The position numbers and the translations under genes are program-made. A DNA stretch of 64,000 bases from an uncultured Candidatus Saccharibacteria bacterium (GTDB lineage Bacteria > Patescibacteriota > Minisyncoccia > Phycocordibacterales > UBA918), in contig CAYGTV010000003.1 of assembly GCA_964353135.1 (NCBI GenBank), positions 26,718 to 90,717 on the forward strand. The letters are read 5' to 3'. Under the pieces are notes generated by a model. It did no database searches and had not been told where the DNA came from. It was given only the letters and a program-made list of their open reading frames with translations. Within the stretch, counting starts at the first letter, position 1; each line of letters opens with the position of its first letter. Shown piece after piece: positions 5,029-62,409 of this stretch.

Positions 5029-5037
5029 CTTAAATTG

Positions 5038-5111
5038 TGTCGACGGGAAGAATTGAACTTCCGACCTCAACTTTATGAGTGTTGCGCTCTAACCAACTGA
5101 GCTACGCCGAC
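5038..5111 (-). tRNA. tRNA-Met (anticodon CAT), elongator type, or possibly tRNA-Ile2 (lysidine).
   Basis: Reverse complement GTCGGCG-TA-GCTCAGTTGGTTAGAGC-G-CAACA-CTCATAA-AGTTG-AGGTC-GGAAG-TTCAATT-CTTCC-CGTCGAC-A. Py11:Pu24 marks an elongator-type D-stem; there is no GGG/CCC anticodon stem. Confidence 0.85.
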
Positions 5112-6321: not shown

Positions 6322-6885
6322 ATGTCACTTCCAACCCATGCCGAAGCTGGAGTATTACTCGAACAGTACGTTACCGACCCATACCAACGCTTTCATGCGC
6401 TGATGGTTGGTACTGCCATGAAAGGCTATGCCGAAAAACTAGGCGAAGATACCAAGTTATGGTTTATGACCGGCTACTTGCATGACATCGACTACGACCA
6501 GTACCCGACCGAGCACCCAGGACCGTCTCTTGAATGGTTTAAAGACTGGGGTTACCCAACAGAACTAATTCATGCAGTCGAAGCACACGCCAATGGGTTT
6601 AACGGGTTCTCTACCCAGCCGCAATCACAGTTAGCAAAGGCGCTCATTGCTTGTGATGAAATTTGCGGAATCTTTTATGCCTACCAAAAACTAAACCCAA
6701 TTCCGTTTAGGAAAATGAAAGCTACATCAATCAAAAAACGTCTCAAAGAAGAACGGTTTGCCCCCGGAATTGATCGTGCCCATATCTACAACGGTGTAGA
6801 AGATTTTGGCATCACGATTGACGAACATGTAGACAATCTGATTGAGTTCTTTGCAGATTTGGATTCTCCAGTTTTAAATTCTTAG
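6322..6885 (+). CDS. HD-domain phosphohydrolase.
   Basis: HALMVG...YLHDIDY H...HD pattern; 187 aa. Confidence 0.7.
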   Translation: MSLPTHAEAGVLLEQYVTDPYQRFHALMVGTAMKGYAEKLGEDTKLWFMTGYLHDIDYDQYPTEHPGPSLEWFKDWGYPTELIHAVEAHANGFNGFSTQPQSQLAKALIACDEICGIFYAYQKLNPIPFRKMKATSIKKRLKEERFAPGIDRAHIYNGVEDFGITIDEHVDNLIEFFADLDSPVLNS

Positions 6886-7602
6886 TTCTAGCGGAAGCGA
6901 AGTCAGCTGCTTGTATCCATTCTCAGTGATCACAAACAGGTCCTCTAGGCGGACGCCACCGATGTGTTTGTAATACAGACCTGGCTCGACAGTAACAACA
7001 TCCCCTACCTGCAAGACATCCTCGCTGGCTGCGCCAAGCGAAGGTGCTTCGTGGACATGTTTCCCCAAACCATGGCCAACAGTATGAACAAATCCTTCAG
7101 CATATTTAAACAGTGTTCCAGTTCCTGATGTTTTGTATCCCAGCGACTCAAATACCTCTACAGATGCATTGTGAACGTCACTACATTGGACACCCGGACC
7201 AAGCATCGCTACAGATTTTGCATGGGCTTGTTTGACAGCATCATACATAGCGAGCAATTCGGGCGATGGTTCACCTAAACAAACCGTCCTGGTCATATCT
7301 GCATAAAAACCGGATTCTATTGACCTTGGATAGATATCAATGACAATCGGTTGATTCCACTCGATCACACCCGTTCCCATATAGTGTGGTTCATGAGTAC
7401 CGAGTCCACCAGCCACAATCCTACCTTCTGGTGATTCGCAGTTGTGTTCTTCTAGAGTTCGATCGAGCACTGCTTTAGCATCTTCTGAATTAGGACTCTC
7501 TGTTTGTTGCAGATACGAAATAACAGCAGTCATAGCTGACTCAGCCGCAGCAACACTTTGATTAATTGCCGTTATATCTAATTGGGTTTTATTTCGTGAC
7601 AT
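6874..7602 (-). CDS. M24-family metallopeptidase (MetAP / Xaa-Pro aminopeptidase-like catalytic domain).
   Basis: Pita-bread metal-ligand pattern ...DIYPRSIESGFYADMTRT... HTVGHGLGKHVHE ... VEPG; 242 aa. Confidence 0.75.
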   Translation of the reverse strand: MSRNKTQLDITAINQSVAAAESAMTAVISYLQQTESPNSEDAKAVLDRTLEEHNCESPEGRIVAGGLGTHEPHYMGTGVIEWNQPIVIDIYPRSIESGFYADMTRTVCLGEPSPELLAMYDAVKQAHAKSVAMLGPGVQCSDVHNASVEVFESLGYKTSGTGTLFKYAEGFVHTVGHGLGKHVHEAPSLGAASEDVLQVGDVVTVEPGLYYKHIGGVRLEDLFVITENGYKQLTSLPLELRI

Positions 7603-7605
7603 ATT

Positions 7606-8250
7606 TTACTGTGCCTTGGTTGCTAAAATCTCAACCCATTTAACTTCTTCACGCCCATACTTATCTCCTACAAATCGTTGCTCTGTAACTAAAAAACCTG
7701 CTAATTTCAGCATTTCATTTAATCCCTCTTGCGTGTAGTAGCGAAAGAAACGCTCATGGCCTGACAGAGAGTCACTCACTACTTCTGTTTCTTTATCACC
7801 TGTTTGCAACTTCACTTTCACAAACAATAACCCGTTCTGTGGCAAAACTCGATTAAACTCTTTCAATGCCTGAAGCACCTCTTCTTTCGTTTCCAAATGA
7901 ACTAAAGATGCTGTCGCAAACACTCCATCAAAAAACCTGTCTGCAAAGGGTATAGCTAGAAAACTACCTTGTATAAATTCAATCCCAGGGTTCCTCTTCC
8001 TTGCTTCTCCTAGTAAACCAATTGATATATCCAACCCTACTGGTACTGCCCCTCTATCAAGGAATAGTCCAGCATGCTTACCTGGACCACATCCTGCATC
8101 GAGGATTCTTGGGTTATCTGACAATTTTGACATAAACCAATCAACTGAATCAGATGACATGTTTGCATATGTTTTAGATGCATATTCATTAGCATTACTG
8201 TCGTACCACTCAATTGTATCTTTGAAATCCATATTAGTAGAGTATAACAA
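7606..8250 (-). CDS. Class I SAM-dependent methyltransferase.
   Basis: Motif I ILDAGCGPGKH; 214 aa. Confidence 0.8.
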   Translation of the reverse strand: MLYSTNMDFKDTIEWYDSNANEYASKTYANMSSDSVDWFMSKLSDNPRILDAGCGPGKHAGLFLDRGAVPVGLDISIGLLGEARKRNPGIEFIQGSFLAIPFADRFFDGVFATASLVHLETKEEVLQALKEFNRVLPQNGLLFVKVKLQTGDKETEVVSDSLSGHERFFRYYTQEGLNEMLKLAGFLVTEQRFVGDKYGREEVKWVEILATKAQ

Positions 8251-8366
8251 AACTAATCTTCTGAATAGAATTTTCTAAAAAAACGCCCGGAGGCGCTATA
8301 CATGTAGGAGCAAGAACAAATGAAAAAAGAAACCAGAAATGGCCCGCCGAGGCGGACCATTTGTTT

Positions 8367-9554
8367 TTAAGTACTTTTTGGTTTTTGAAGAATTGGCAAA
8401 CTCTCAAACATCGGAACTTGCTCTCCCGTAAACGGAGCAAGCAAACTCCTTGTTTTTTCATGCCTCTTTGTGGCACGAGCGAGTTTGGTGGGTATGATTA
8501 ATGACGGCTTGGTATCATGAATCAGACCCTGCACCAGCGTCTCTGGACTGGTTCGCTCACGCAACCAAAACTGTCCGATGTCATAATAGGTGCCAGCAGG
8601 CACACCATACTTACACCAAGGAGCAATGGCGCAGCCACCACAAGAGCGATCATGTAGTCGGCGATACGCCGGAACGGCCCAATCAACATCGTGCGGCACA
8701 CGCACCTTTTTATCCTTGATAATACGACCGTCGCCCATCTCAACATCCATGTACGTGACACGAGACTTTGTATACGGAGCCTTACGACACAACTTTAGCG
8801 ACCAGAGCCAAATCACATCACCATATTCAACAGCGGTGAGACTAAACTCTCTTTGCAGCCACTTTGCCAACTCAATTCCGAGGTGTTCTACCGCCTCGAA
8901 TCGTATACGCACAGTTCCAAACACAACTATCATCATAGTCGATAGATATACACGTAGATGATGAAAATCAACCGGAGCAGAAAGTTCATTGTGAGGAATC
9001 AGTCCAGTGGCAGCCAAAAAGTAGCTCAGCATACTAGACATTTTCATCTGAAAACCTTTAAACCCACGATATCCGTTACGGCCAATGATCCTGTCATACA
9101 GCTCTTGCTCAGAGACAGTACCTTTGAAGATATTTCTTGGATCTGCATCCCAATCTTCCAACAGAACTATTGAATTGTCGAACCAAAAAACACCAATTTG
9201 ATCAAATCGCCAAGAGATGTACCCATACAAAATCAAACCAATTTCCCAAGGATTACTTTTCGCGACTTGCACAGGATCAAACAACCAACGTTCATTTTTC
9301 CAAAGTCGAATGAGTTGTTTGAAAGCATCACTACTGACAACTGTGCCACGCATATACAAACATGCGTAGAAGAGGAACAAAGCGAATTGCAGTGGTTTTG
9401 ACGCAATTTCTTTTGGAACCAAATTTTGCGGCAAATCAGTCTCTGGCCGATCGTACGGATACTTACCTCTATGATAGAGGTCAAGCATAGGCTCAAACGC
9501 TTCTCGCGCTCTGGCCTTGTCTATTTTTCCTTCTATCATCTTGTTTTCTCCCAA
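8367..9554 (-). CDS. Hypothetical 395-aa protein. A C-terminal CxxCx5C cluster resembles the EndoIII-type Fe-S loop; a DNA-glycosylase-like role is only speculation.
   Basis: ...HDRSCGGCAIAPWCKYG... with no other recognisable domain; intrinsic terminator hairpins at 8283-8300 and 8338-8369 follow the stop. Confidence 0.45.
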   Translation of the reverse strand: MGENKMIEGKIDKARAREAFEPMLDLYHRGKYPYDRPETDLPQNLVPKEIASKPLQFALFLFYACLYMRGTVVSSDAFKQLIRLWKNERWLFDPVQVAKSNPWEIGLILYGYISWRFDQIGVFWFDNSIVLLEDWDADPRNIFKGTVSEQELYDRIIGRNGYRGFKGFQMKMSSMLSYFLAATGLIPHNELSAPVDFHHLRVYLSTMMIVVFGTVRIRFEAVEHLGIELAKWLQREFSLTAVEYGDVIWLWSLKLCRKAPYTKSRVTYMDVEMGDGRIIKDKKVRVPHDVDWAVPAYRRLHDRSCGGCAIAPWCKYGVPAGTYYDIGQFWLRERTSPETLVQGLIHDTKPSLIIPTKLARATKRHEKTRSLLAPFTGEQVPMFESLPILQKPKST

Positions 9555-9772
9555 GTTTTACATTTGACCTTCCGAGTATCTATTCTCCTGATTTACTTAA
9601 TAAAGTCAAGAAAGGCAGCAGCAATGTCGGCTTGGGTTCTTTTATATCTGTAGAGACGACACATTTGACAAAAAGTAAACTAATATGTTTTCCATACTTT
9701 TTGCTAGAGGCACGCGACTGGACATGCGATACTGAGTGTAGACACCTTTACAATTACATAGTGGAGCTACCC

Positions 9773-10543
9773 ATGAACGACTTCCTGAGTGAAGCAGACG
9801 CTTTCGAGCAAGCTAGCAAAGCGTCGCCAACAGACGACTTTTTGCCAGACTACTCAGAGAGCGCAACTGCCCTCTCTGATCCATTCTACGAGTTCAAGCT
9901 TGACCGCTACCAAGTCAGCGAGGATGAGTACGAAAAGTACGGTATCATTCCTCTAACAAGAGGCTACTTTGCCGTTGTGTCCCGCAAAGAATATAAATTC
10001 GCAACAAGTTCCAAGTTGTTTGCAAACGTTCAACTGTGTCGTAAGACTGGTCGCATAGTCAAAATCTACGCCGCCCGCCGTTCAACTTCTCAAGAAATAA
10101 GGAATGGTGCGCCTCAATACATTTATTTGCATCGAGCACTCACCAAGACAGTATTTGCTGGAAAGCGAGTAATCGTTGACCACCAAAATGGCCAGTCTCT
10201 CGATTGCAGAACCAAGAACTTACGCATAACCAACCAAAGTAGCAACGTTGGAAATATCTCTGATGAGGTAGTGAACAAAAGAACTAAATACCACGGTCTT
10301 CCAAGAGGGGTGGAACCCCTCAAAAGATCGTGGGGTACTGCTTATAGGGCAACCGTTCGCATCCGAGGTCAGAGGATTAGATCGAAAACCACGTTCACTT
10401 GTCCAGAGCGGGCAGGTCGCTGGTTCAAGCGCATGAATGCAGTGTTGCGACCAGAGGCTTGTCTGGTGAATCCTAACATGGATCCACCTTCACCAATCAA
10501 GTTTCCACCCTTGGTGGAAGTGCTGACCGATGTTCCGTTTTAA
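9773..10543 (+). CDS. HNH endonuclease with C-terminal AP2 DNA-binding domain (free-standing homing-endonuclease type).
   Basis: HNH core YIYLHRALTKTV...VDHQNGQSLDCRTKNLRITN. AP2 domain GLPRGVEPLKRSWGTAYRATVRIRGQRIRSKTTFTCPERAGRWFKRMN. Start taken at the Met with GGAG 7 nt upstream; the ORF track version starts 47 codons earlier. Confidence 0.7.
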   Translation: MNDFLSEADAFEQASKASPTDDFLPDYSESATALSDPFYEFKLDRYQVSEDEYEKYGIIPLTRGYFAVVSRKEYKFATSSKLFANVQLCRKTGRIVKIYAARRSTSQEIRNGAPQYIYLHRALTKTVFAGKRVIVDHQNGQSLDCRTKNLRITNQSSNVGNISDEVVNKRTKYHGLPRGVEPLKRSWGTAYRATVRIRGQRIRSKTTFTCPERAGRWFKRMNAVLRPEACLVNPNMDPPSPIKFPPLVEVLTDVPF

Positions 10544-10553
10544 CAAGTTCCTT

Positions 10554-10579
10554 GAAGCCGCGGTGTGAACCGCGGCTTC
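10554..10579 (+). terminator. Terminator hairpin after the HNH gene.
   Basis: gaagccgcgg-tgtgaa-ccgcggcttc. Confidence 0.55.
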
Positions 10580-10613
10580 TTCACCCCTTGGTGACAGAAC
10601 TTGTATCAATCAA

Positions 10614-10644
10614 ACAAAAACCGTTAGCTGATTGCAAACGGTTT
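10614..10644 (+). terminator. Second terminator hairpin.
   Basis: aaaaaccgtt-agctgattgca-aacggttttt, then gttta ttttg. Confidence 0.6.
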
Positions 10645-10663
10645 TTGTTTATTTTGTTGTGGG

Positions 10664-10712
10664 GTGAGAAAGTCTGTGAGACTTTTGCAAGACCTTTTGA
10701 GAAATTTATTTT
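10664..10712. repeat. Copy 1 of the hairpin element ggtgagaaagtctgtgagacttttgcaagacc.
   Basis: See 62040..62092. Confidence 0.55.
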
Positions 10713-10916
10713 CCAAAAGATGTATAGGTTCTGTAAGAACCTGAATCGTCCCAGAATAGCGGCTCGTTTATTTCACTTCGTTCATAAACCAGACTCGCTT
10801 TCTTGGACGGCTCCTCGAATTTTTATTCGCCTGAACAGCTCATAAAAATATACTCCGGAGCTTCGATTCCGGAAGAAAACAAAACTATTTGTTTTCTGCC
10901 CCGCACATTAAGCAAA

Positions 10917-10946
10917 GAAAAACACCAATATAAAATCGGTGTTTTT
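10917..10946. terminator. Terminator downstream (minus-strand sense) of the intron-containing tRNA.
   Basis: aaaaacacc-aatataaaatc-ggtgttttt. Confidence 0.6.
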
Positions 10947-10955
10947 CTTTACTTG

Positions 10956-11284
10956 TTGCGGGGCCCGGAATCGAACCGGGGTCTGGAGGTTCTGTTCTTC
11001 CAACACTTTCATGCTGGCATGGACTATCCCATATTCCTTAGCCTAACTAGTAGGAATTTTTCATTATAGTCTCTGAACCTTCCGTCCGCCTAGGCGGAGG
11101 GCTTGGCTGCCGATTGCCGAATCTTGTTTATTTTAAAGCATTCACGCTTACCCTCTCGAGTTACGTTGTAGCTAAACAAGCTCTCACGGTGTTCCAGCAA
11201 TTTCGAAAATTTTTCCACATAATATTTCTACTATGGGTCACAGTTACCCATGAGCCTCCCGAGATACCTCTTCTCTACCCCGCT
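10956..11284 (-). tRNA. tRNA-Met/fMet (anticodon CAT) split by a group I intron. Exon 1 is 11250..11284, exon 2 is 10956..10991.
   Basis: Exons join to AGCGGGG-TA-GAGA-AGAGGTA-TCTC-G-GGAGG-CTCAT|AA-CCTCC-AGAC-CCCGG-TTCGATT-CCGGG-CCCCGCA-A. The anticodon loop CTCATAA is identical to the tRNA-Met at 5038..5111. A11:U24 and a 1:72 mismatch are initiator-like. The intron sits directly 3' of anticodon nucleotide U36. Confidence 0.7.
10992..11249 (-). ncRNA. Group I self-splicing intron (~258 nt) inside the tRNA(CAT) anticodon loop.
   Basis: Follows an exon U and ends in G (..GAACAG|AA). Carries the canonical P7 elements: R GGTTCAGAGACTA (forward 11067-11079) and S GGATAGTCC (11021-11029). A P4/P5-like GGCAATCGGCAGCCAAGCC resembles GGCAATCCTGAGCCAA of cyanobacterial tRNA-Leu introns. 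No internal ORF. Confidence 0.7.
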
Positions 11285-11381
11285 ATATATTTATTCAGTT
11301 GTGACCGAGAGTGTAACACTACCAGATTCTATTGTCTAGCAAATAAACACACATGGTATAATTACCTCCGAACTATAGAGC

Positions 11382-12056
11382 ATGGCAAAAATAAAAGAAA
11401 AAGAATCTGCATTACAACTTCGCAAAGAAGGCACGAGCATAAAGCAGATAGCAAGACTGCTGAGTGTAAGCCCTAGTACAGTTAGCGTATGGTGTCGTGA
11501 TATCCAACTATCAAAAGAGGCTATTAGCAGACTTACCCTGTCAGGAAATGACCAAGCTACTGCTGCTTTGATTGCCTACTCACAAGCAAAACGCGAGACT
11601 AGAGAAAATAATACTAAAAATAATTACGCTGTAGGAGCAAAGTTGATCGGAGGGCTATCTGACAGAGACGTACTCTGTATTGGCCTAGGTTTGTACTGGG
11701 GTGAAGGTTACAAAAATGGTAATCGAGAATTTGGTTTCACTAATAGTGATCCAGCTATGATCCAATTTTATATACATTGGTTACAAACTGTATTTAACAT
11801 ACCTACCACAGATTTAACTTTACGAGTCAGTATTAACGATCAGCACACAAATCGAATAGATATTGTGGAGAAATATTGGGCAAAAATCACTAATGTTCCT
11901 CTGAATCAATTCACAAAATCGAGTTTGATTAAAACGTTATCAAAAAAACACTATTCAAACCATCATAGGCATTATGGCACTCTTAGAATTAAAGTAAAAC
12001 TTGGTAGTGACTACCGAGAGCAAATACTAGGTGCAATTGAGCATATAAAAATTTAG
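11382..12056 (+). CDS. Putative LAGLIDADG-type homing endonuclease with N-terminal HTH domain; moderate confidence.
   Basis: N-terminal HTH (TSIKQIARLLSVSPSTVSVWCRD). Central single motif ...VLCIGLGLYWGEGYKNG (GLxxxGDG-like, Glu in place of Asp) followed by an I-CreI-like helper region. Divergently placed ~100 nt from the 5' end of the intron-bearing tRNA. Confidence 0.4.
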   Translation: MAKIKEKESALQLRKEGTSIKQIARLLSVSPSTVSVWCRDIQLSKEAISRLTLSGNDQATAALIAYSQAKRETRENNTKNNYAVGAKLIGGLSDRDVLCIGLGLYWGEGYKNGNREFGFTNSDPAMIQFYIHWLQTVFNIPTTDLTLRVSINDQHTNRIDIVEKYWAKITNVPLNQFTKSSLIKTLSKKHYSNHHRHYGTLRIKVKLGSDYREQILGAIEHIKI

Positions 12057-12742
12057 TCTACGCCAAATTCTCGAAAAACGCGCATGTAGCGGGCAATGGT
12101 CTCATCCGCAATTCGGCGCGTTACCACAAAATCGGCTCCTTCGTGAGCAATTTTATTTCGTACTCGGTGAGCATCCCATACATCGTCGATACTAGTAAGC
12201 TGACTAGGTGTGATGCTGCGCAATCTTTCTCCAAGTGAGTTTCCAGCATACCCTCGATCTTTTAGGGTTTGATCGAGGATTATGTCAGCCTCAATAATCG
12301 CCAACTTCCAGTCATTGGGATTTTCTGAGAGTGCGTGCTGCTGGATGTCATCAAGTCGGCCATGTTTTTTAGAAGCTCCATACGTTTCGTTCCAAATTTG
12401 ATAGTCATCCTGCATTCGCTGTTCTATTAACCCTTCGTAGTACTCTTTTCGGATGGTCGCATAAATATAGAGAATGATGAAAATCAGCGAGAGCAAGTAA
12501 GCTATAAACGTGTAGATTGACCACAACCAAGCCAATACCCCCAAAATACCACCCCCAAACAACCAGGCCCAAAATTCATTTCCACCGAAAATGGCCGCCC
12601 AGAGATCGCCAAGGAAATTGGAAGACTCGAAACCAACGTCGCCACTAGGTATATTACCCTCAGGCAGGTCACCATCAATTGGCGGCGGACGTGGGATCAG
12701 CTCTTGTCGGGGGTCAATGTTATTTTGTAGAAAGCGTAGCAT
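12053..12742 (-). CDS. Membrane-anchored HEPN-domain protein (DUF4145-like); last gene of the ligA-gatC-gatA transcription unit.
   Basis: Two transmembrane helices (WAAIFGG...ILGVLAWLWSIYTFIAYLLSLIFIILYIY), then a cytoplasmic domain with the HEPN Rx4H motif in ...DVWDAHRVRNKIAHEG... Start taken at MLRFLQ (12742); the track ORF extends into gatA. Confidence 0.5.
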   Translation of the reverse strand: MLRFLQNNIDPRQELIPRPPPIDGDLPEGNIPSGDVGFESSNFLGDLWAAIFGGNEFWAWLFGGGILGVLAWLWSIYTFIAYLLSLIFIILYIYATIRKEYYEGLIEQRMQDDYQIWNETYGASKKHGRLDDIQQHALSENPNDWKLAIIEADIILDQTLKDRGYAGNSLGERLRSITPSQLTSIDDVWDAHRVRNKIAHEGADFVVTRRIADETIARYMRVFREFGVD

Positions 12743-14153
12743 CGTAGATTCGCACTCCAGCGTCGAACAGTCGTTCATCTCCGGCATGTGGTGCTATATA
12801 TTGTACCCCAACCGGGAGTGACTTACCGTCCCGCTGTACAGTACCCATCGGGAAAGAAATTGCTGGTACACCAGTTAGGTTCACTGGAACCGTGAAAACA
12901 TCTTGGCGATACATAGATAATGGATCTTCTTGCTCACCAATTTTAAATGCCGGAGTCGGCGCGGTTGGAGTCAAAATCATATCAACAGTTGCAAACACAC
13001 TAGCTAGCTCTTCTCGCATTTTTCGCCGGGCGATTTCCGCTTTTCCATAGTATGCATCATAGTACCCAGAAGAAAGCACATGGGTTCCAAGCAAGATTCG
13101 TCGTTTAACCTCAGCACCAAAACCTTCAGCTCGTGATTTTTCGTACACTTCAAGTAAATCTTTGGCTTCAGTGGTCGAGTGACCGTACCGAATTCCGTCG
13201 TACCGAGCCAAGTTAGACGATACCTCTGCTGGCATCACGATGTAGTATGCCGCCAGTCCTTTTTCAAATAGCGGTAATTCGATATCGACTACCTTGTGTC
13301 CAGCTACTTTGAGTGACTCAACATGAGTATTGAATGCTTCCAGCACATCAGGATCAATCCCTTCAGCTAGGAATGCTTTTGGTACACCAAACGTATAGGT
13401 TTCTTTTGTCTCGACTACCGGGTACGTATCATCCTCGATGGTTGTCCCGTCCATCGGATCTAACCCAGCCATTGTGTCATGTAGCAATTTTGCATCGGCC
13501 ACACTGTGCGTGAGTGGACCAGCCTGATCGAGACTCGACCCCATTGCCATCAAACCATACCGGGACACCGCACCATAGGTTGGTTTATATCCAACCAAAC
13601 CACAATAGCTGGCAGGCTGCCGGACTGATCCACCAGTGTCAGTTCCAATCGCTGCAGGAACCATGTTGGCAGCCACCGCTGCGGCTGATCCGCCTGATGA
13701 ACCGCCAGGCACCCGATCAGTATCATGTGGGTTTTTAGTTACACCAAACGCTGAATTTTCGGTCGAGCCACCCATTGCAAACTCGTCCATGTTGGCTGAT
13801 CCAATAAAAATTGCCCCTGCATCGCGCAAACGCCCGATAATAGTCGCGTCATAAATCGCAGTGTAATTTTCGAGCATTTTAGAAGCAGCAGTAGCAATAT
13901 GATCTTTGATCAAAATATTGTTTTTGATTGCCAGTGGAATACCAAGAAGCGGCTTACCTTCTGTATCACCAGCTGCATAAGCTGCGGTCGCTGCTTCAGC
14001 TGCTGCAAGTGCTTCTTCTTTATAGGTATGCAAAAAAGCGTGAATATTAGCATCCGTAGATTCGATTGTAGCGAGATAGTCAGTCACCGCCTGCGTTGGT
14101 GTATATGATCCATCTGTGTAACCAGCTATCAATTCTGAGATTGTTTTATACAT
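12720..14153 (-). CDS. gatA: Glutamyl-tRNA(Gln) amidotransferase subunit A (amidase signature family).
   Basis: Amidase signature GGSSGGSAAAVAA; 477 aa; follows gatC. Confidence 0.9.
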   Translation of the reverse strand: MYKTISELIAGYTDGSYTPTQAVTDYLATIESTDANIHAFLHTYKEEALAAAEAATAAYAAGDTEGKPLLGIPLAIKNNILIKDHIATAASKMLENYTAIYDATIIGRLRDAGAIFIGSANMDEFAMGGSTENSAFGVTKNPHDTDRVPGGSSGGSAAAVAANMVPAAIGTDTGGSVRQPASYCGLVGYKPTYGAVSRYGLMAMGSSLDQAGPLTHSVADAKLLHDTMAGLDPMDGTTIEDDTYPVVETKETYTFGVPKAFLAEGIDPDVLEAFNTHVESLKVAGHKVVDIELPLFEKGLAAYYIVMPAEVSSNLARYDGIRYGHSTTEAKDLLEVYEKSRAEGFGAEVKRRILLGTHVLSSGYYDAYYGKAEIARRKMREELASVFATVDMILTPTAPTPAFKIGEQEDPLSMYRQDVFTVPVNLTGVPAISFPMGTVQRDGKSLPVGVQYIAPHAGDERLFDAGVRIYDATLSTK

Positions 14154-26309: not shown

Positions 26310-27100
26310 ATAGTAGTTTCGTTATCTTCTAGACGGTCTTCGTCAAGGGGAATAATCTCGTCCGATAGTGAGCTGGTATCTTCAAAATCTGGCTCAGTAT
26401 TTTCTGTTGTATCAACCTCTGGAATGTTTAATATATCAGCCGCGTCGCTTGATTGATACACCCCAATATCTGTCCGACGAGCCTCCAACGGATCATAGAG
26501 CGCAGCTGAAAGTGGAATCGAGAAATCAGCTATAAATGTAACCGCTGGTGGTGTAGCTACTCCTTCAGCCAATACAGCTTCTGCGCCGCTTTGAATATCA
26601 ACCTCTGAGATTGTAACGTCCGAGAATAGAGCGCTGTTTGCAGTCAAAACTTTACGCTGGAACAAAGCAGCATCGAGGGTTTCAGTAGAAAAGTTAATCG
26701 TTAGGATTAAACGTTGGTCTCCTTCTCGTTCTAGTGCAAGGTCGTTAATCTGGATCGGCTGCGCAGTGATCCTATCCATTTCATCTAAGACAGCTACGAT
26801 GGAAACCGTATTGTCGACGCGATCTTTTGCCTTTTCCAACGACTCATTAAACTCTTGGACTTGTTTAAAATCCTGGATACTGAATGTGTTTACGGCACCA
26901 TCAAGTAGGATGGCTTCGTTCTCGAGCTGGGAAATTGTATAGTTTTTGTAGAAATAAGTACCCCCCGCAGCCAGTAATGCTCCAAAGAGCATGCTGTACG
27001 CAACAATCGTAATCAGGAAAATCTTCCGTGTAGGTCTTGAGCTTTGACGCTTGGAGTTGCGCCTTTTTGGTATAAAAGAATTGTTTGAGGAACCTTGCAT
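26306..27100 (-). CDS. pilN: PilN-like pilus assembly protein.
   Basis: Basic N-terminus, single transmembrane helix, periplasmic domain; follows pilM. Confidence 0.55.
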   Translation of the reverse strand: MQGSSNNSFIPKRRNSKRQSSRPTRKIFLITIVAYSMLFGALLAAGGTYFYKNYTISQLENEAILLDGAVNTFSIQDFKQVQEFNESLEKAKDRVDNTVSIVAVLDEMDRITAQPIQINDLALEREGDQRLILTINFSTETLDAALFQRKVLTANSALFSDVTISEVDIQSGAEAVLAEGVATPPAVTFIADFSIPLSAALYDPLEARRTDIGVYQSSDAADILNIPEVDTTENTEPDFEDTSSLSDEIIPLDEDRLEDNETTI

Positions 27101-60710: not shown

Positions 60711-60877
60711 TGTCGTCTTATTTCTACTCATGCTATCGCCTTCTGACACATCTGGGCTATAGTTAACTGCATGAGGGGCAATATCAAGATGTCGCACGTT
60801 ACGACATACCGCGCTGCTACCACACGTTTACTCGGCTACCAATAAGATAGCACATTTAATTAAATTGTCAATAGATG

Positions 60878-60964
60878 CGGAGAGTAAGGGATTCGAACCC
60901 TTGGAACCCGTAAAGGCTCGGCAGTTTAGTAAACTGCTGCTTTCGACCACTCAGCCAACTCTCC
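60878..60964 (-). tRNA. Class II tRNA, Ser-like (discriminator G, long variable arm) with apparent anticodon ACT (unusual).
   Basis: Reverse complement GGAGAGT-TG-GCT-GAGTGGTCGAA-AGC-A-GCAGT-TTACTAA-ACTGC-CGAGCCTTTACGGGTTCC-AAGGG-TTCGAAT-CCCTT-ACTCTCC-G. The anticodon arm is a perfect 17-nt palindrome. Confidence 0.6.
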
Positions 60965-62279: not shown

Positions 62280-62324
62280 AAAATGCAACAAAACCTAAAG
62301 ACATGCTTTAGGTTTTGGCATTTG

Positions 62325-62409
62325 CGGAGACGAGAGGATTCGAACCTCCGGGGGCGTGAACCCCACTTCCTTAGCAAGGAAGCACGATAGACCACTCTGA
62401 CACGTCTCC
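62325..62409 (-). tRNA. tRNA-Ser (anticodon GCT), class II.
   Basis: Reverse complement GGAGACG-TG-...-CTTCC-TTGCTAA-GGAAG-TGGGGTTCACGCCCCC-GGAGG-TTCGAAT-CCTCT-CGTCTCC-G. Confidence 0.85.

Follow-up and report, generated by a model that had tools for sequence, protein, structure and literature searches.

Why does an initiator tRNA gene that is split by an intron have a free-standing gene on either side, and does either gene help to spread the intron? The question is raised by contig CAYGTV010000003.1 of an uncultured Candidatus Saccharibacteria bacterium (assembly GCA_964353135.1), of which we analysed a stretch of 64,000 nucleotides (positions 26,718 to 90,717; 'the window'). The split tRNA(CAU) gene lies between an HNH-like open reading frame (ORF1) and a divergent open reading frame (ORF2) with an N-terminal helix-turn-helix (HTH). 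We find that ORF2 belongs to a large protein family that is closely linked to intron-split tRNA genes. Our reading, which we put forward tentatively, is that ORF2, a free-standing gene, may belong to a new family of homing-endonuclease-like genes that target tRNA genes and may collaborate with the ORF-less intron, and that the HNH-like gene may be a separate invader.

A split initiator tRNA gene and its ORF2 neighbour

A preliminary description of the window had placed an intron in a tRNA gene, and a group I intron does interrupt the tRNA(CAU) gene on the minus strand. The intron matches Rfam RF00028 at 60.1 bits (gathering score 50, E=1e-12) across model positions 1-253 of 253, and the match spans 11000-11262 on the minus strand. 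Default ARAGORN called no tRNA within 9.6-12.1 kb; with its intron option it returned a cloverleaf at 10955-11284. Splice sites were placed by group I rules (a U before the 5' splice site, P1 and a terminal G). ORF2 is a real gene, divergent from the tRNA. The tRNA-ORF2 module has the following parts:

11250..11284, minus strand: 5' exon of the initiator-type tRNA(CAU), ending ...GGCUCAU after anticodon position 36 (ARAGORN with intron option, sequence reading)
10992..11249, minus strand: group I intron, 258 nt, between U36 and A37 ('class A36'; RF00028, splice rules)
10956..10991, minus strand: tRNA 3' exon, AACCUCC...CCCCGCAA, with no encoded CCA (ARAGORN with intron option, sequence reading)
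11285..11381: spacer of 97 bp between the divergent tRNA and ORF2, with a promoter-like site for the tRNA
11382..12056, plus strand: ORF2, 224 amino acids, candidate free-standing tRNA-targeting endonuclease (HTH above Pfam cut-offs, linkage to split tRNAs)
11385-11531, plus strand: N-terminal HTH of ORF2, about residues 2-50, of resolvase/transposase type (HTH_23, HTH_7 and HTH_38, all above Pfam cut-offs)
11643-12053, plus strand: C-terminal domain of ORF2 (residues 88-224, about 135 amino acids), following a long helix, with the invariant motif GLGLYWGEGYK...FTNSD

P1 pairs GGCUCAU with GUGACCC and places a U.G pair at the splice site, and the last intron base is G. Joining the exons of the window tRNA gives CTCGGGAGGCTCATAACCTCCAGAC. 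For all 61 split genes examined, ligation of the exons restores a GGCUCAUAACC loop; in 60 of the 61, U is the last base of the 5' exon. The complete Rfam match and correct splice-site rules suggest that the intron is removed by RNA self-splicing. Several features mark the tRNA as an initiator: a 1x72 mismatch (A1xA72 in the window, C1xA72 in the L001 ortholog), A11:U24, the anticodon CAU and, at the base of the anticodon stem, two of the three G-C pairs (G30-C40/G31-C39). The second tRNA(CAU) gene of the window (5037-5111) is of the elongator type.

The window intron is 93% identical to the intron of locus L208 and 82% identical to those of L003 and L001. Introns of relatives score 39-88 bits against RF00028. 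The gathering threshold missed introns located between U33 and C34 (U33|C34), which E-value mode recovers at 39-58 bits. The intron (10992-11249) contains no conserved ORF, the conservation of a 42-codon ORF inside it not having been looked at. That ORF starts with GTG, lies at 11090-11218 on the minus strand (the intron strand), and is too short for an endonuclease. The spacer holds a suggestive promoter-like site, TAGACA-17-TACACT with an extended TG (11338-11310, minus strand), found in a consensus scan in which the count of such sites was not above shuffled expectation. The AGTGTTACAC element of the spacer is also present in the empty-site allele of locus L128.

We collected loci from 80 species-level Patescibacteria genomes, retrieved through ORF2, and took a census of their tRNA genes with ARAGORN -i, regular-expression inspection and nhmmer. 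Of 85 ORF2-like ORFs in the nhmmer census, 79 have an intron-containing tRNA gene no more than 450 bp away. The remaining six comprise three contig ends, a pair of 'type 2' paralogs (described below) and an Omnitrophota locus (L083). Loci with ORF2 for which ARAGORN called no split tRNA were considered as true exceptions and rejected: regular-expression and nhmmer inspection resolved them as missed calls or contig ends. The usual partner is the initiator tRNA, transcribed divergently across a gap of 67-125 bp in most loci. All sampled members of the ORF2 family adjoin a tRNA gene, and all assessable members of the window's subfamily adjoin an intron-split one.

Insertion sites fall within a single 25-nt anticodon arm, at U33|C34 (about 60 loci) or, as in the window, at U36|A37 (12 loci). 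All intron types are group I by Rfam. Both site classes accompany the same ORF2 clade and interleave on a neighbour-joining tree of ORF2 computed without bootstrap; ORF2 thus tracks the interrupted site and not one intron lineage. More distant ORF2 clades (25-32% identity) lie directly downstream of an intron-split tRNA-Phe gene in eight of eight cases. Another distant member is directly upstream of an intron-split tRNA-Arg gene, and one is located between intron-less tRNA-Thr genes.

A linkage of this kind could arise with no functional connection, if ORF2 were an ancestral neighbour of tRNA-fMet in Paceibacteria-like lineages, the intron a separate ancient feature, and their association inflated by the way the loci were collected. 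Recurring synteny with ligA-gatCA-p244, a divergence of ORF2 that roughly follows host divergence, and retrieval of the loci through ORF2 are what this account would predict. It is nonetheless very improbable. The association recurs with fMet, Phe and Arg tRNAs and in both orientations, and the tRNA-ORF2 module stays intact in L002, where it is inverted relative to gatA. Intron and ORF2 are both missing from relatives at 78-86% GatA identity and both present in more distant ones, and intron-less alleles with identical exons occur without ORF2.

Patchy distribution and the case for collaborative homing

Intron, ORF2 and the HNH-like gene are each polymorphic in presence or absence among relatives, which we ranked by GatA identity to the window. 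The closest, L208 (93%), has the intron and the HNH gene and lacks ORF2. L128 (86%) has none of the three, L003 (83%) has all of them, and L001 (82%) has the intron and ORF2 without the HNH gene. All three are again absent from L162 and L207 (78%), and L019 and L025 (72-73%) carry intron and ORF2 but no HNH gene.

L128 has a clean empty site, in which the stop of p244 (the gene beyond ORF2 in the window) is followed by 90 bp, the intron-less tRNA, a terminator and a homolog of the window gene at 6874-7602 (76% identity). Its intron-less allele reads AGCGGGGTGGAGGAGAGGTACCTCGGGAGGCTCATAACCTCCAGACCCCGGTTCGATTCCGGGCCCCGCAA. Relative to L128, the window has three insertions: ORF2, the intron and a 3.35-kb block (7603-10955). 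In L208 we found no ORF2 within the 10.7 kb covered, and a copy elsewhere in that genome is possible. Its spacer upstream of the tRNA resembles the empty-site spacer and not ORF2. Since L208 has the intron without ORF2 and an upstream spacer like that of the empty site, at least one gain or loss of ORF2 happened independently of the intron.

Uninterrupted alleles are abundant. An exact-pattern scan detected the uninterrupted arm CTCGGGAGGCTCATAACCTCCAGAC on at least 120 contigs from metagenomes, whose tRNAs match the spliced exons fully or almost fully. Among 80 such contigs with at least 800 bp of upstream sequence, nearby members of the ORF2 family amount to three intact type-2 genes and one pseudogene. 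No copy of the uninterrupted arm was found within ORF2 loci.

These observations fit the following scheme. ORF2 would be a dimeric DNA-binding protein, composed of the HTH and a new 'YWGEGYK' domain. In tRNA-fMet alleles that lack the intron, it would recognise the anticodon stem-loop DNA, which is palindrome-like and uninterrupted there, and cut it. Repair of the cut from the occupied allele would bring in the intron and, with it, the neighbouring ORF2 ('collaborative homing'). An intron at U33|C34 or U36|A37 would split the recognition sequence, so that the carrier genome would be protected. We infer DNA cleavage by ORF2, its target site and co-conversion. One may speculate that the two insertion sites are symmetric around the anticodon, where a dimer on the stem-loop palindrome would cut.

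We favour collaborative homing because of the tight linkage of ORF2 to an ORF-less intron, the joint patchiness, the abundance of uninterrupted alleles, the DNA-binding domain, and the association with any intron that interrupts one short pseudo-palindromic sequence. The layout of such a system, an ORF-less intron with a gene immediately outside the interrupted gene, is present in the window if the endonuclease identity of that gene is assumed. Gain and loss coincide across the relatives listed above, at L128, and in the at least 120 intron-less alleles, nearly all of which are without ORF2; L208 is the exception. The preliminary description had likewise proposed an ORF-less intron with free-standing collaborating endonucleases: the layout and patchiness bear this out, and the identification of ORF2 as a LAGLIDADG nuclease is not confirmed (see below).

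Collaborative homing and a tRNA-fMet-specific endonuclease have both been described (PMC3984707). As in phage collaborative homing (PMC3984707), the locus pairs an ORF-less intron in a conserved gene with a separate gene directly beside it, the two occur together and patchily among relatives, and uninterrupted alleles circulate. It differs from the phage systems in its setting, a bacterial chromosome in a small-genome phylum, and in its target, a tRNA gene. ORF2, a candidate enzyme only, also belongs to no known endonuclease family; its family is very large and under strong purifying selection, and the same protein clade accompanies two intron positions 3 nt apart.

A second precedent is the group I intron of cyanobacterial tRNA-fMet with its intron-encoded endonuclease I-Ssp6803I (Bonocora and Shub 2001, as cited in PMC3984707). 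Like that intron, the window intron is group I and follows CAU immediately in the anticodon loop of an initiator tRNA. In contrast to the I-Ssp6803I case, the window intron is ORF-less, the candidate enzyme is encoded outside the gene, and the second insertion site, U33|C34, predominates in the window's relatives. ORF2 resembles no PDB chain, whether by sequence or by Foldseek, and this holds for I-Ssp6803I too.

The co-occurrence of ORF2 with introns could also mean that ORF2 is a trans-acting splicing cofactor (a maturase or chaperone) that the initiator-tRNA intron needs and that is encoded beside its substrate for co-expression. Purifying selection on ORF2 and divergent transcription from a shared spacer would suit such a role, and maturases derived from homing endonucleases are known (PMC3984707). 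We regard this as improbable. The closest relative, L208, has an intron 93% identical to that of the window; ORF2 is absent from the 10.7 kb covered, and the upstream spacer resembles the empty site. One ORF2 clade accompanies introns at two insertion sites, family members also occur beside intron-less tRNAs, and most introns in Asp and Arg tRNAs have no such gene nearby. ORF2 has no RNA-binding domain, and its HTH is of the resolvase/transposase type, which binds DNA.

The ORF2 family and what its protein may do

The ORF2 family comprises at least 578 close homologs, and a profile of the C-terminal domain retrieves 3037 cluster representatives at E<=1e-3. Across 38 sequences with identity down to 23%, LYWGEGYK is nearly invariant and the preceding GLG stretch is less conserved. 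The Glu of the GEG motif is kept across clades at 25% identity. This invariant acidic residue ends a Gly-rich helix, and residues on the adjacent strands differ between clades with different tRNA partners. Tandem two-domain homologs (P0266, P0270) suggest that the YWGEGYK domain works as a dimer. The ratio of nonsynonymous to synonymous substitution rates (dN/dS) is 0.09-0.11 in five close pairs, indicating purifying selection. Decayed copies are a minority; they comprise L045 with an internal stop, the pseudogene of L155, and L053, L061, L074-76 and L079, in which the N-terminus is truncated.

The preliminary description had called ORF2 an HTH plus LAGLIDADG protein. Its HTH half stands, with Pfam cut-offs passed. 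For the LAGLIDADG half, none of 38 diverse C-terminal domains matched the LAGLIDADG profiles (LAGLIDADG_1, LAGLIDADG_2, LAGLIDADG_3, WhiA, Hom_end) at E<=10, and hhalign of the C-terminal domain against I-CreI, whose sequence was checked against the PDB, gave a probability of 0.5%. AlphaFold2 models reached confidence (pLDDT) values of 88 and 82, and Foldseek searches with two confident models found no LAGLIDADG structure. Pfam, PDB and BFVD contain no detectable relative of the C-terminal domain.

ORF2 does resemble LAGLIDADG proteins, which include single-motif homodimers such as I-CreI as well as their domesticated relative WhiA, in several ways. Its motif, x-G-L-h-x-(G/A)-(D/E)-G, likewise ends a helix; it is followed by a hairpin, a helix and a strand in the same order as in LAGLIDADG cores, with one acidic residue invariant; and the residues that vary between ORF2 clades sit on predicted strands. 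The family has both single-domain and tandem forms, combined with an HTH, as LAGLIDADG and WhiA proteins do. Against this likeness, ORF2 has no Pfam, profile, hhalign or Foldseek support as a LAGLIDADG protein, in its predicted topology the third and last strands are separated by an additional helix and strand, and its HTH is N-terminal, unlike that of WhiA (LAGLIDADG plus HTH). The likeness is at the level of the motif, which is not proof of homology, and we do not class ORF2 as LAGLIDADG.

Three other origins for ORF2 were considered and rejected. A serine recombinase or insertion sequence transposase was suggested by 'LRVSIN', which resembles the RVS motif of resolvases, but this stretch is not conserved in the tRNA-Phe clade; ORF2 has no Resolvase or DDE match, and no terminal inverted repeats flank it. 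A PD-(D/E)XK nuclease, the type of I-Ssp6803I, does not fit the order of acidic and Lys residues and found no PDB match. A phage origin found no match in a tblastn search of 50,697 phage records.

Several observations weigh against an endonuclease role for ORF2. First, the C-terminal domain has no match in Pfam, NCBIfam, PHROGs or PADLOC, and a PDB phmmer search and two PDB profile searches with ORF2 found nothing. The best Foldseek matches are OmpA-like or IspF folds with TM-scores below 0.45, and AlphaFold2 confidence is lowest exactly at the motif hairpin. Second, some homologs adjoin uninterrupted tRNA genes. A 'type 2' subfamily, with the motifs GEG[VIS]K and YYGVLALRV, is located 5-45 bp upstream of an uninterrupted elongator-type tRNA-Met(CAU), and actinobacterial tandem homologs, each with two copies of an HTH plus YWCEGAK domain and 71-73% GC, are found about 40 bp upstream of an uninterrupted tRNA-Gln(UUG), before glmU-prs-rplY-pth and in the same position in two genomes. 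Were such a protein an active endonuclease directed against the neighbouring uninterrupted tRNA gene, it would be hazardous. Third, other intron-split tRNAs in the same genomes are mostly without an ORF2-like neighbour (Asp 6 of 8, Arg 4 of 5). Fourth, the retrieval of loci through ORF2 leaves the probability of finding ORF2 given an intron without an unbiased measurement. Finally, the age of the family, its uniform length, its strong conservation and a divergence that is largely host-like also fit a domesticated cellular function. The homologs beside uninterrupted tRNAs and the introns in other tRNA genes are located as follows:

L018 1839-2522, L030 940-1719, L129 2005-2685 and L138 867-1544: 'type 2' paralogs upstream of tRNA-Met(CAU)
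L203 2601-3311, L214 2501-3013 and L215 257-930: 'type 2' paralogs upstream of tRNA-Met(CAU)
L212 4001-5801 and L213 4001-5631: actinobacterial tandem homologs
L009 6397-6678, L043 4926-5209, L044 3518-3797 and L045 560-847: introns in other tRNA genes
L047 2242-2527, L055 2743-2997, L138 1807-2115, and L174 5150-5438 and 6934-7209: introns in other tRNA genes

These last introns belong to group I and interrupt tRNA-Thr(GGU), tRNA-Asp(GUC) and tRNA-Arg(GCG) of relatives; two are confirmed by Rfam. Two genomes hold both the ORF2 type and 'type 2'. The gene call of the 'type 2' member of L215 begins too late, with its HTH encoded upstream of the called start.

The conserved homologs beside uninterrupted tRNAs raise the possibility that ORF2 is a domesticated DNA-binding protein without nuclease activity. 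It might regulate or organise transcription of the tRNA operon, for instance by autoregulation at the divergent promoter; its link to introns would then be historical and cleavage lost, as in WhiA. The HTH is the only recognisable domain of ORF2, no nuclease fold was found, and strong conservation with uniform length and a dN/dS near 0.1 would be expected of a regulator. No sampled member is farther than about 120 bp from a tRNA gene; these tRNA genes include uninterrupted tRNA-Met and tRNA-Gln at operon-like distances of 5-45 bp. We still consider such a regulator unlikely, since it would leave unexplained the near-perfect coupling of the window's subfamily to split genes and the absence of ORF2 beside identical uninterrupted tRNA-fMet genes. 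Patchiness among close relatives would be unusual for a needed regulator in small genomes, and the Glu of the GEG motif is invariant across clades at 25% identity.

Our confidence in collaborative homing is no higher than tentative because ORF2 has no recognisable nuclease fold, has homologs beside uninterrupted tRNAs, and is conserved in a way that fits a domesticated DNA-binding role. With that reservation, the locus may be a case of collaborative homing, a known kind of system, in which both the protein family and the setting are new. A broader proposal seems rather doubtful: that HTH plus YWGEGYK proteins (about 3000 clusters) constitute a new structural class of homing endonuclease for the palindrome-like anticodon stem-loop DNA of tRNA genes, with group I introns at 33|34 or 36|37, placed symmetrically about the anticodon, conferring immunity on the carrier, and that this explains why tRNA introns are common in Patescibacteria.

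A full-text literature search yielded no description of the ORF2 family or of a pairing between a tRNA-fMet intron and a gene in bacteria of the candidate phyla radiation (CPR). LAGLIDADG endonucleases of rRNA introns have been reported in CPR bacteria (PMC11270868, PMC8172020), and a passing remark states that CPR tRNAs often carry group I introns (PMC8172020). If ORF2 is an endonuclease, this would be the first chromosomal, phylum-wide case of collaborative homing in bacteria, and an unrecognised protein family would join the handful of homing-endonuclease folds. It would also supply natural variants for different tRNA genes, possibly usable as programmable rare cutters, and would explain in a testable way why tRNA group I introns are abundant in CPR/Patescibacteria. 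If ORF2 is instead a splicing factor or regulator, translation initiation in many of these minimal bacteria would depend on a protein tied to a split initiator tRNA, which would be equally unexpected. Either way, the family is a dependable marker in genomes for split tRNA genes overlooked by standard finders, as the one in the window was by default ARAGORN.

The HNH-like gene and the variable island

The initiator tRNA gene is occupied by three independent selfish or optional elements: the intron, ORF2 and ORF1. The two flanking genes are unlike each other. The HNH-like gene is rare and lineage-restricted (5 homologs), while the ORF2 family spans about 3000 clusters under purifying selection. 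ORF1 and its surroundings include the following features:

9773..10543, plus strand: ORF1, 256 amino acids, HNH_3-type (His-Me finger) endonuclease-like protein (sub-threshold Pfam, PHROG and phage HNH matches)
7603..10955: variable block absent from L128, with the methyltransferase, p395, ORF1 and the duplicated tRNA 3' end
7606-8250, minus strand: class I S-adenosylmethionine-dependent methyltransferase, in the block missing from L128
8367-9554, minus strand: p395, hypothetical protein of 395 amino acids, 79% identical in L003 and with only 28-33% relatives elsewhere
10544..10955, minus strand: non-coding stretch between tRNA and ORF1, with the tRNA terminator hairpin (about 10908-10954), an insert of about 300 bp, a second hairpin (10612-10650) and the ORF1 terminator
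12053-12787, minus strand: p244, membrane protein without a family match, with a HEPN-like R-x4-H motif (RNKIAH) in its C-terminal part

ORF1 had been described as an HNH-AP2 endonuclease, of which the HNH part is partly confirmed. Homologs place its start at ATG 9773 and not at TTG 9632. It matches Pfam HNH_3 (PF13392) at 17 bits, below the cut-off of 24.8, and an equal sub-threshold match (E about 0.003) occurs in five of five family members. PHROG_99 'HNH endonuclease' matches ORF1 at E=1e-8, tblastn finds annotated phage HNH homing endonuclease genes at E=1e-4, and VDHxNGxSLDxRxxNL...N (the DH..N..N motif) is invariant across the family. AP2 (PF00847) had no Pfam match at E<=10 in any of the five members, and the YRG/RAYD-like pattern is visible by eye only.

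Only five ORF1 homologs were found among 5.8 billion proteins, and every one with genomic context occupies the same place, downstream of the split tRNA. Identity between the window and L208 is 61% for the HNH proteins, against 93% for GatA, 90% for p244 and 93% for the intron, as would be expected of a fast-evolving, sporadic, free-standing endonuclease gene. The HNH matches of ORF1 are weak but consistent; the gene is unrelated to ORF2, is lodged in the variable island on the 3' flank of the tRNA, and is probably mobile on its own. ORF1 resembles free-standing phage HNH genes (HNH_3/I-HmuI-like) and Seg/Mob genes, including those of T4 and of T5 tRNA clusters, in its DH..N..N motif and its matches to PHROG and phage HNH entries. 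Like them it is intergenic, sporadic, beside a tRNA gene, and diverging faster than its neighbours. It differs from them in falling below the Pfam threshold, in its location in a bacterial chromosome and in having only five homologs.

The order in the window is the hypothetical gene p395, ORF1, the split tRNA, ORF2 and then p244-gatA-gatC-ligA, which agrees with the block boundaries first described. The idea of an invasion hotspot gains from the comparison with L128, from a reverse-transcriptase gene in L003, and from a duplicated tRNA 3' end around a 200-300-bp insert in several relatives. The window has a degenerate second copy of the tRNA 3' end at 10653-10667, after the tRNA terminator and followed by the second hairpin. 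In the window and its relatives the second copy lies 200-330 bp downstream of the tRNA, the intervening segment being partly conserved, and it is near-perfect in L208 and L002 (ATTCCGGGCCCCGC[A/C]ACAA). The duplicated regions span 10544-10955 in the window, 5750-6060 in L208, 5400-5640 in L002 and 6780-7069 in L003. The duplication is present with or without the HNH gene and looks like an old duplication of attachment-site (att) type or a small insert. The reverse-transcriptase gene (RVT_1, 316 amino acids) is located at 3469-4419 in L003-L006, beside a p389 homolog in a variable region, and is absent from the window.

The preliminary description had also counted p244, as a HEPN gene, among the signs of invasion. 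The HEPN label is unsupported: p244 has the R-x4-H motif only, with no Pfam, NCBIfam or PADLOC match. It is not an invader but part of the syntenic core, found after gatA in more than 150 loci, some of them intron-less. Its stop and that of ORF2 overlap by 4 bp. A defence island was rejected on the same grounds, p244 being core syntenic and PADLOC returning no matches for ORF1, ORF2, p244 or p395.

Elsewhere in the window, ARAGORN calls a tRNA-Ser with the anticodon ACT (60877-60964, minus strand). Its A34 is unusual for bacteria, and the gene lies near a normal tRNA-Ser(GCT) at 62324-62409.

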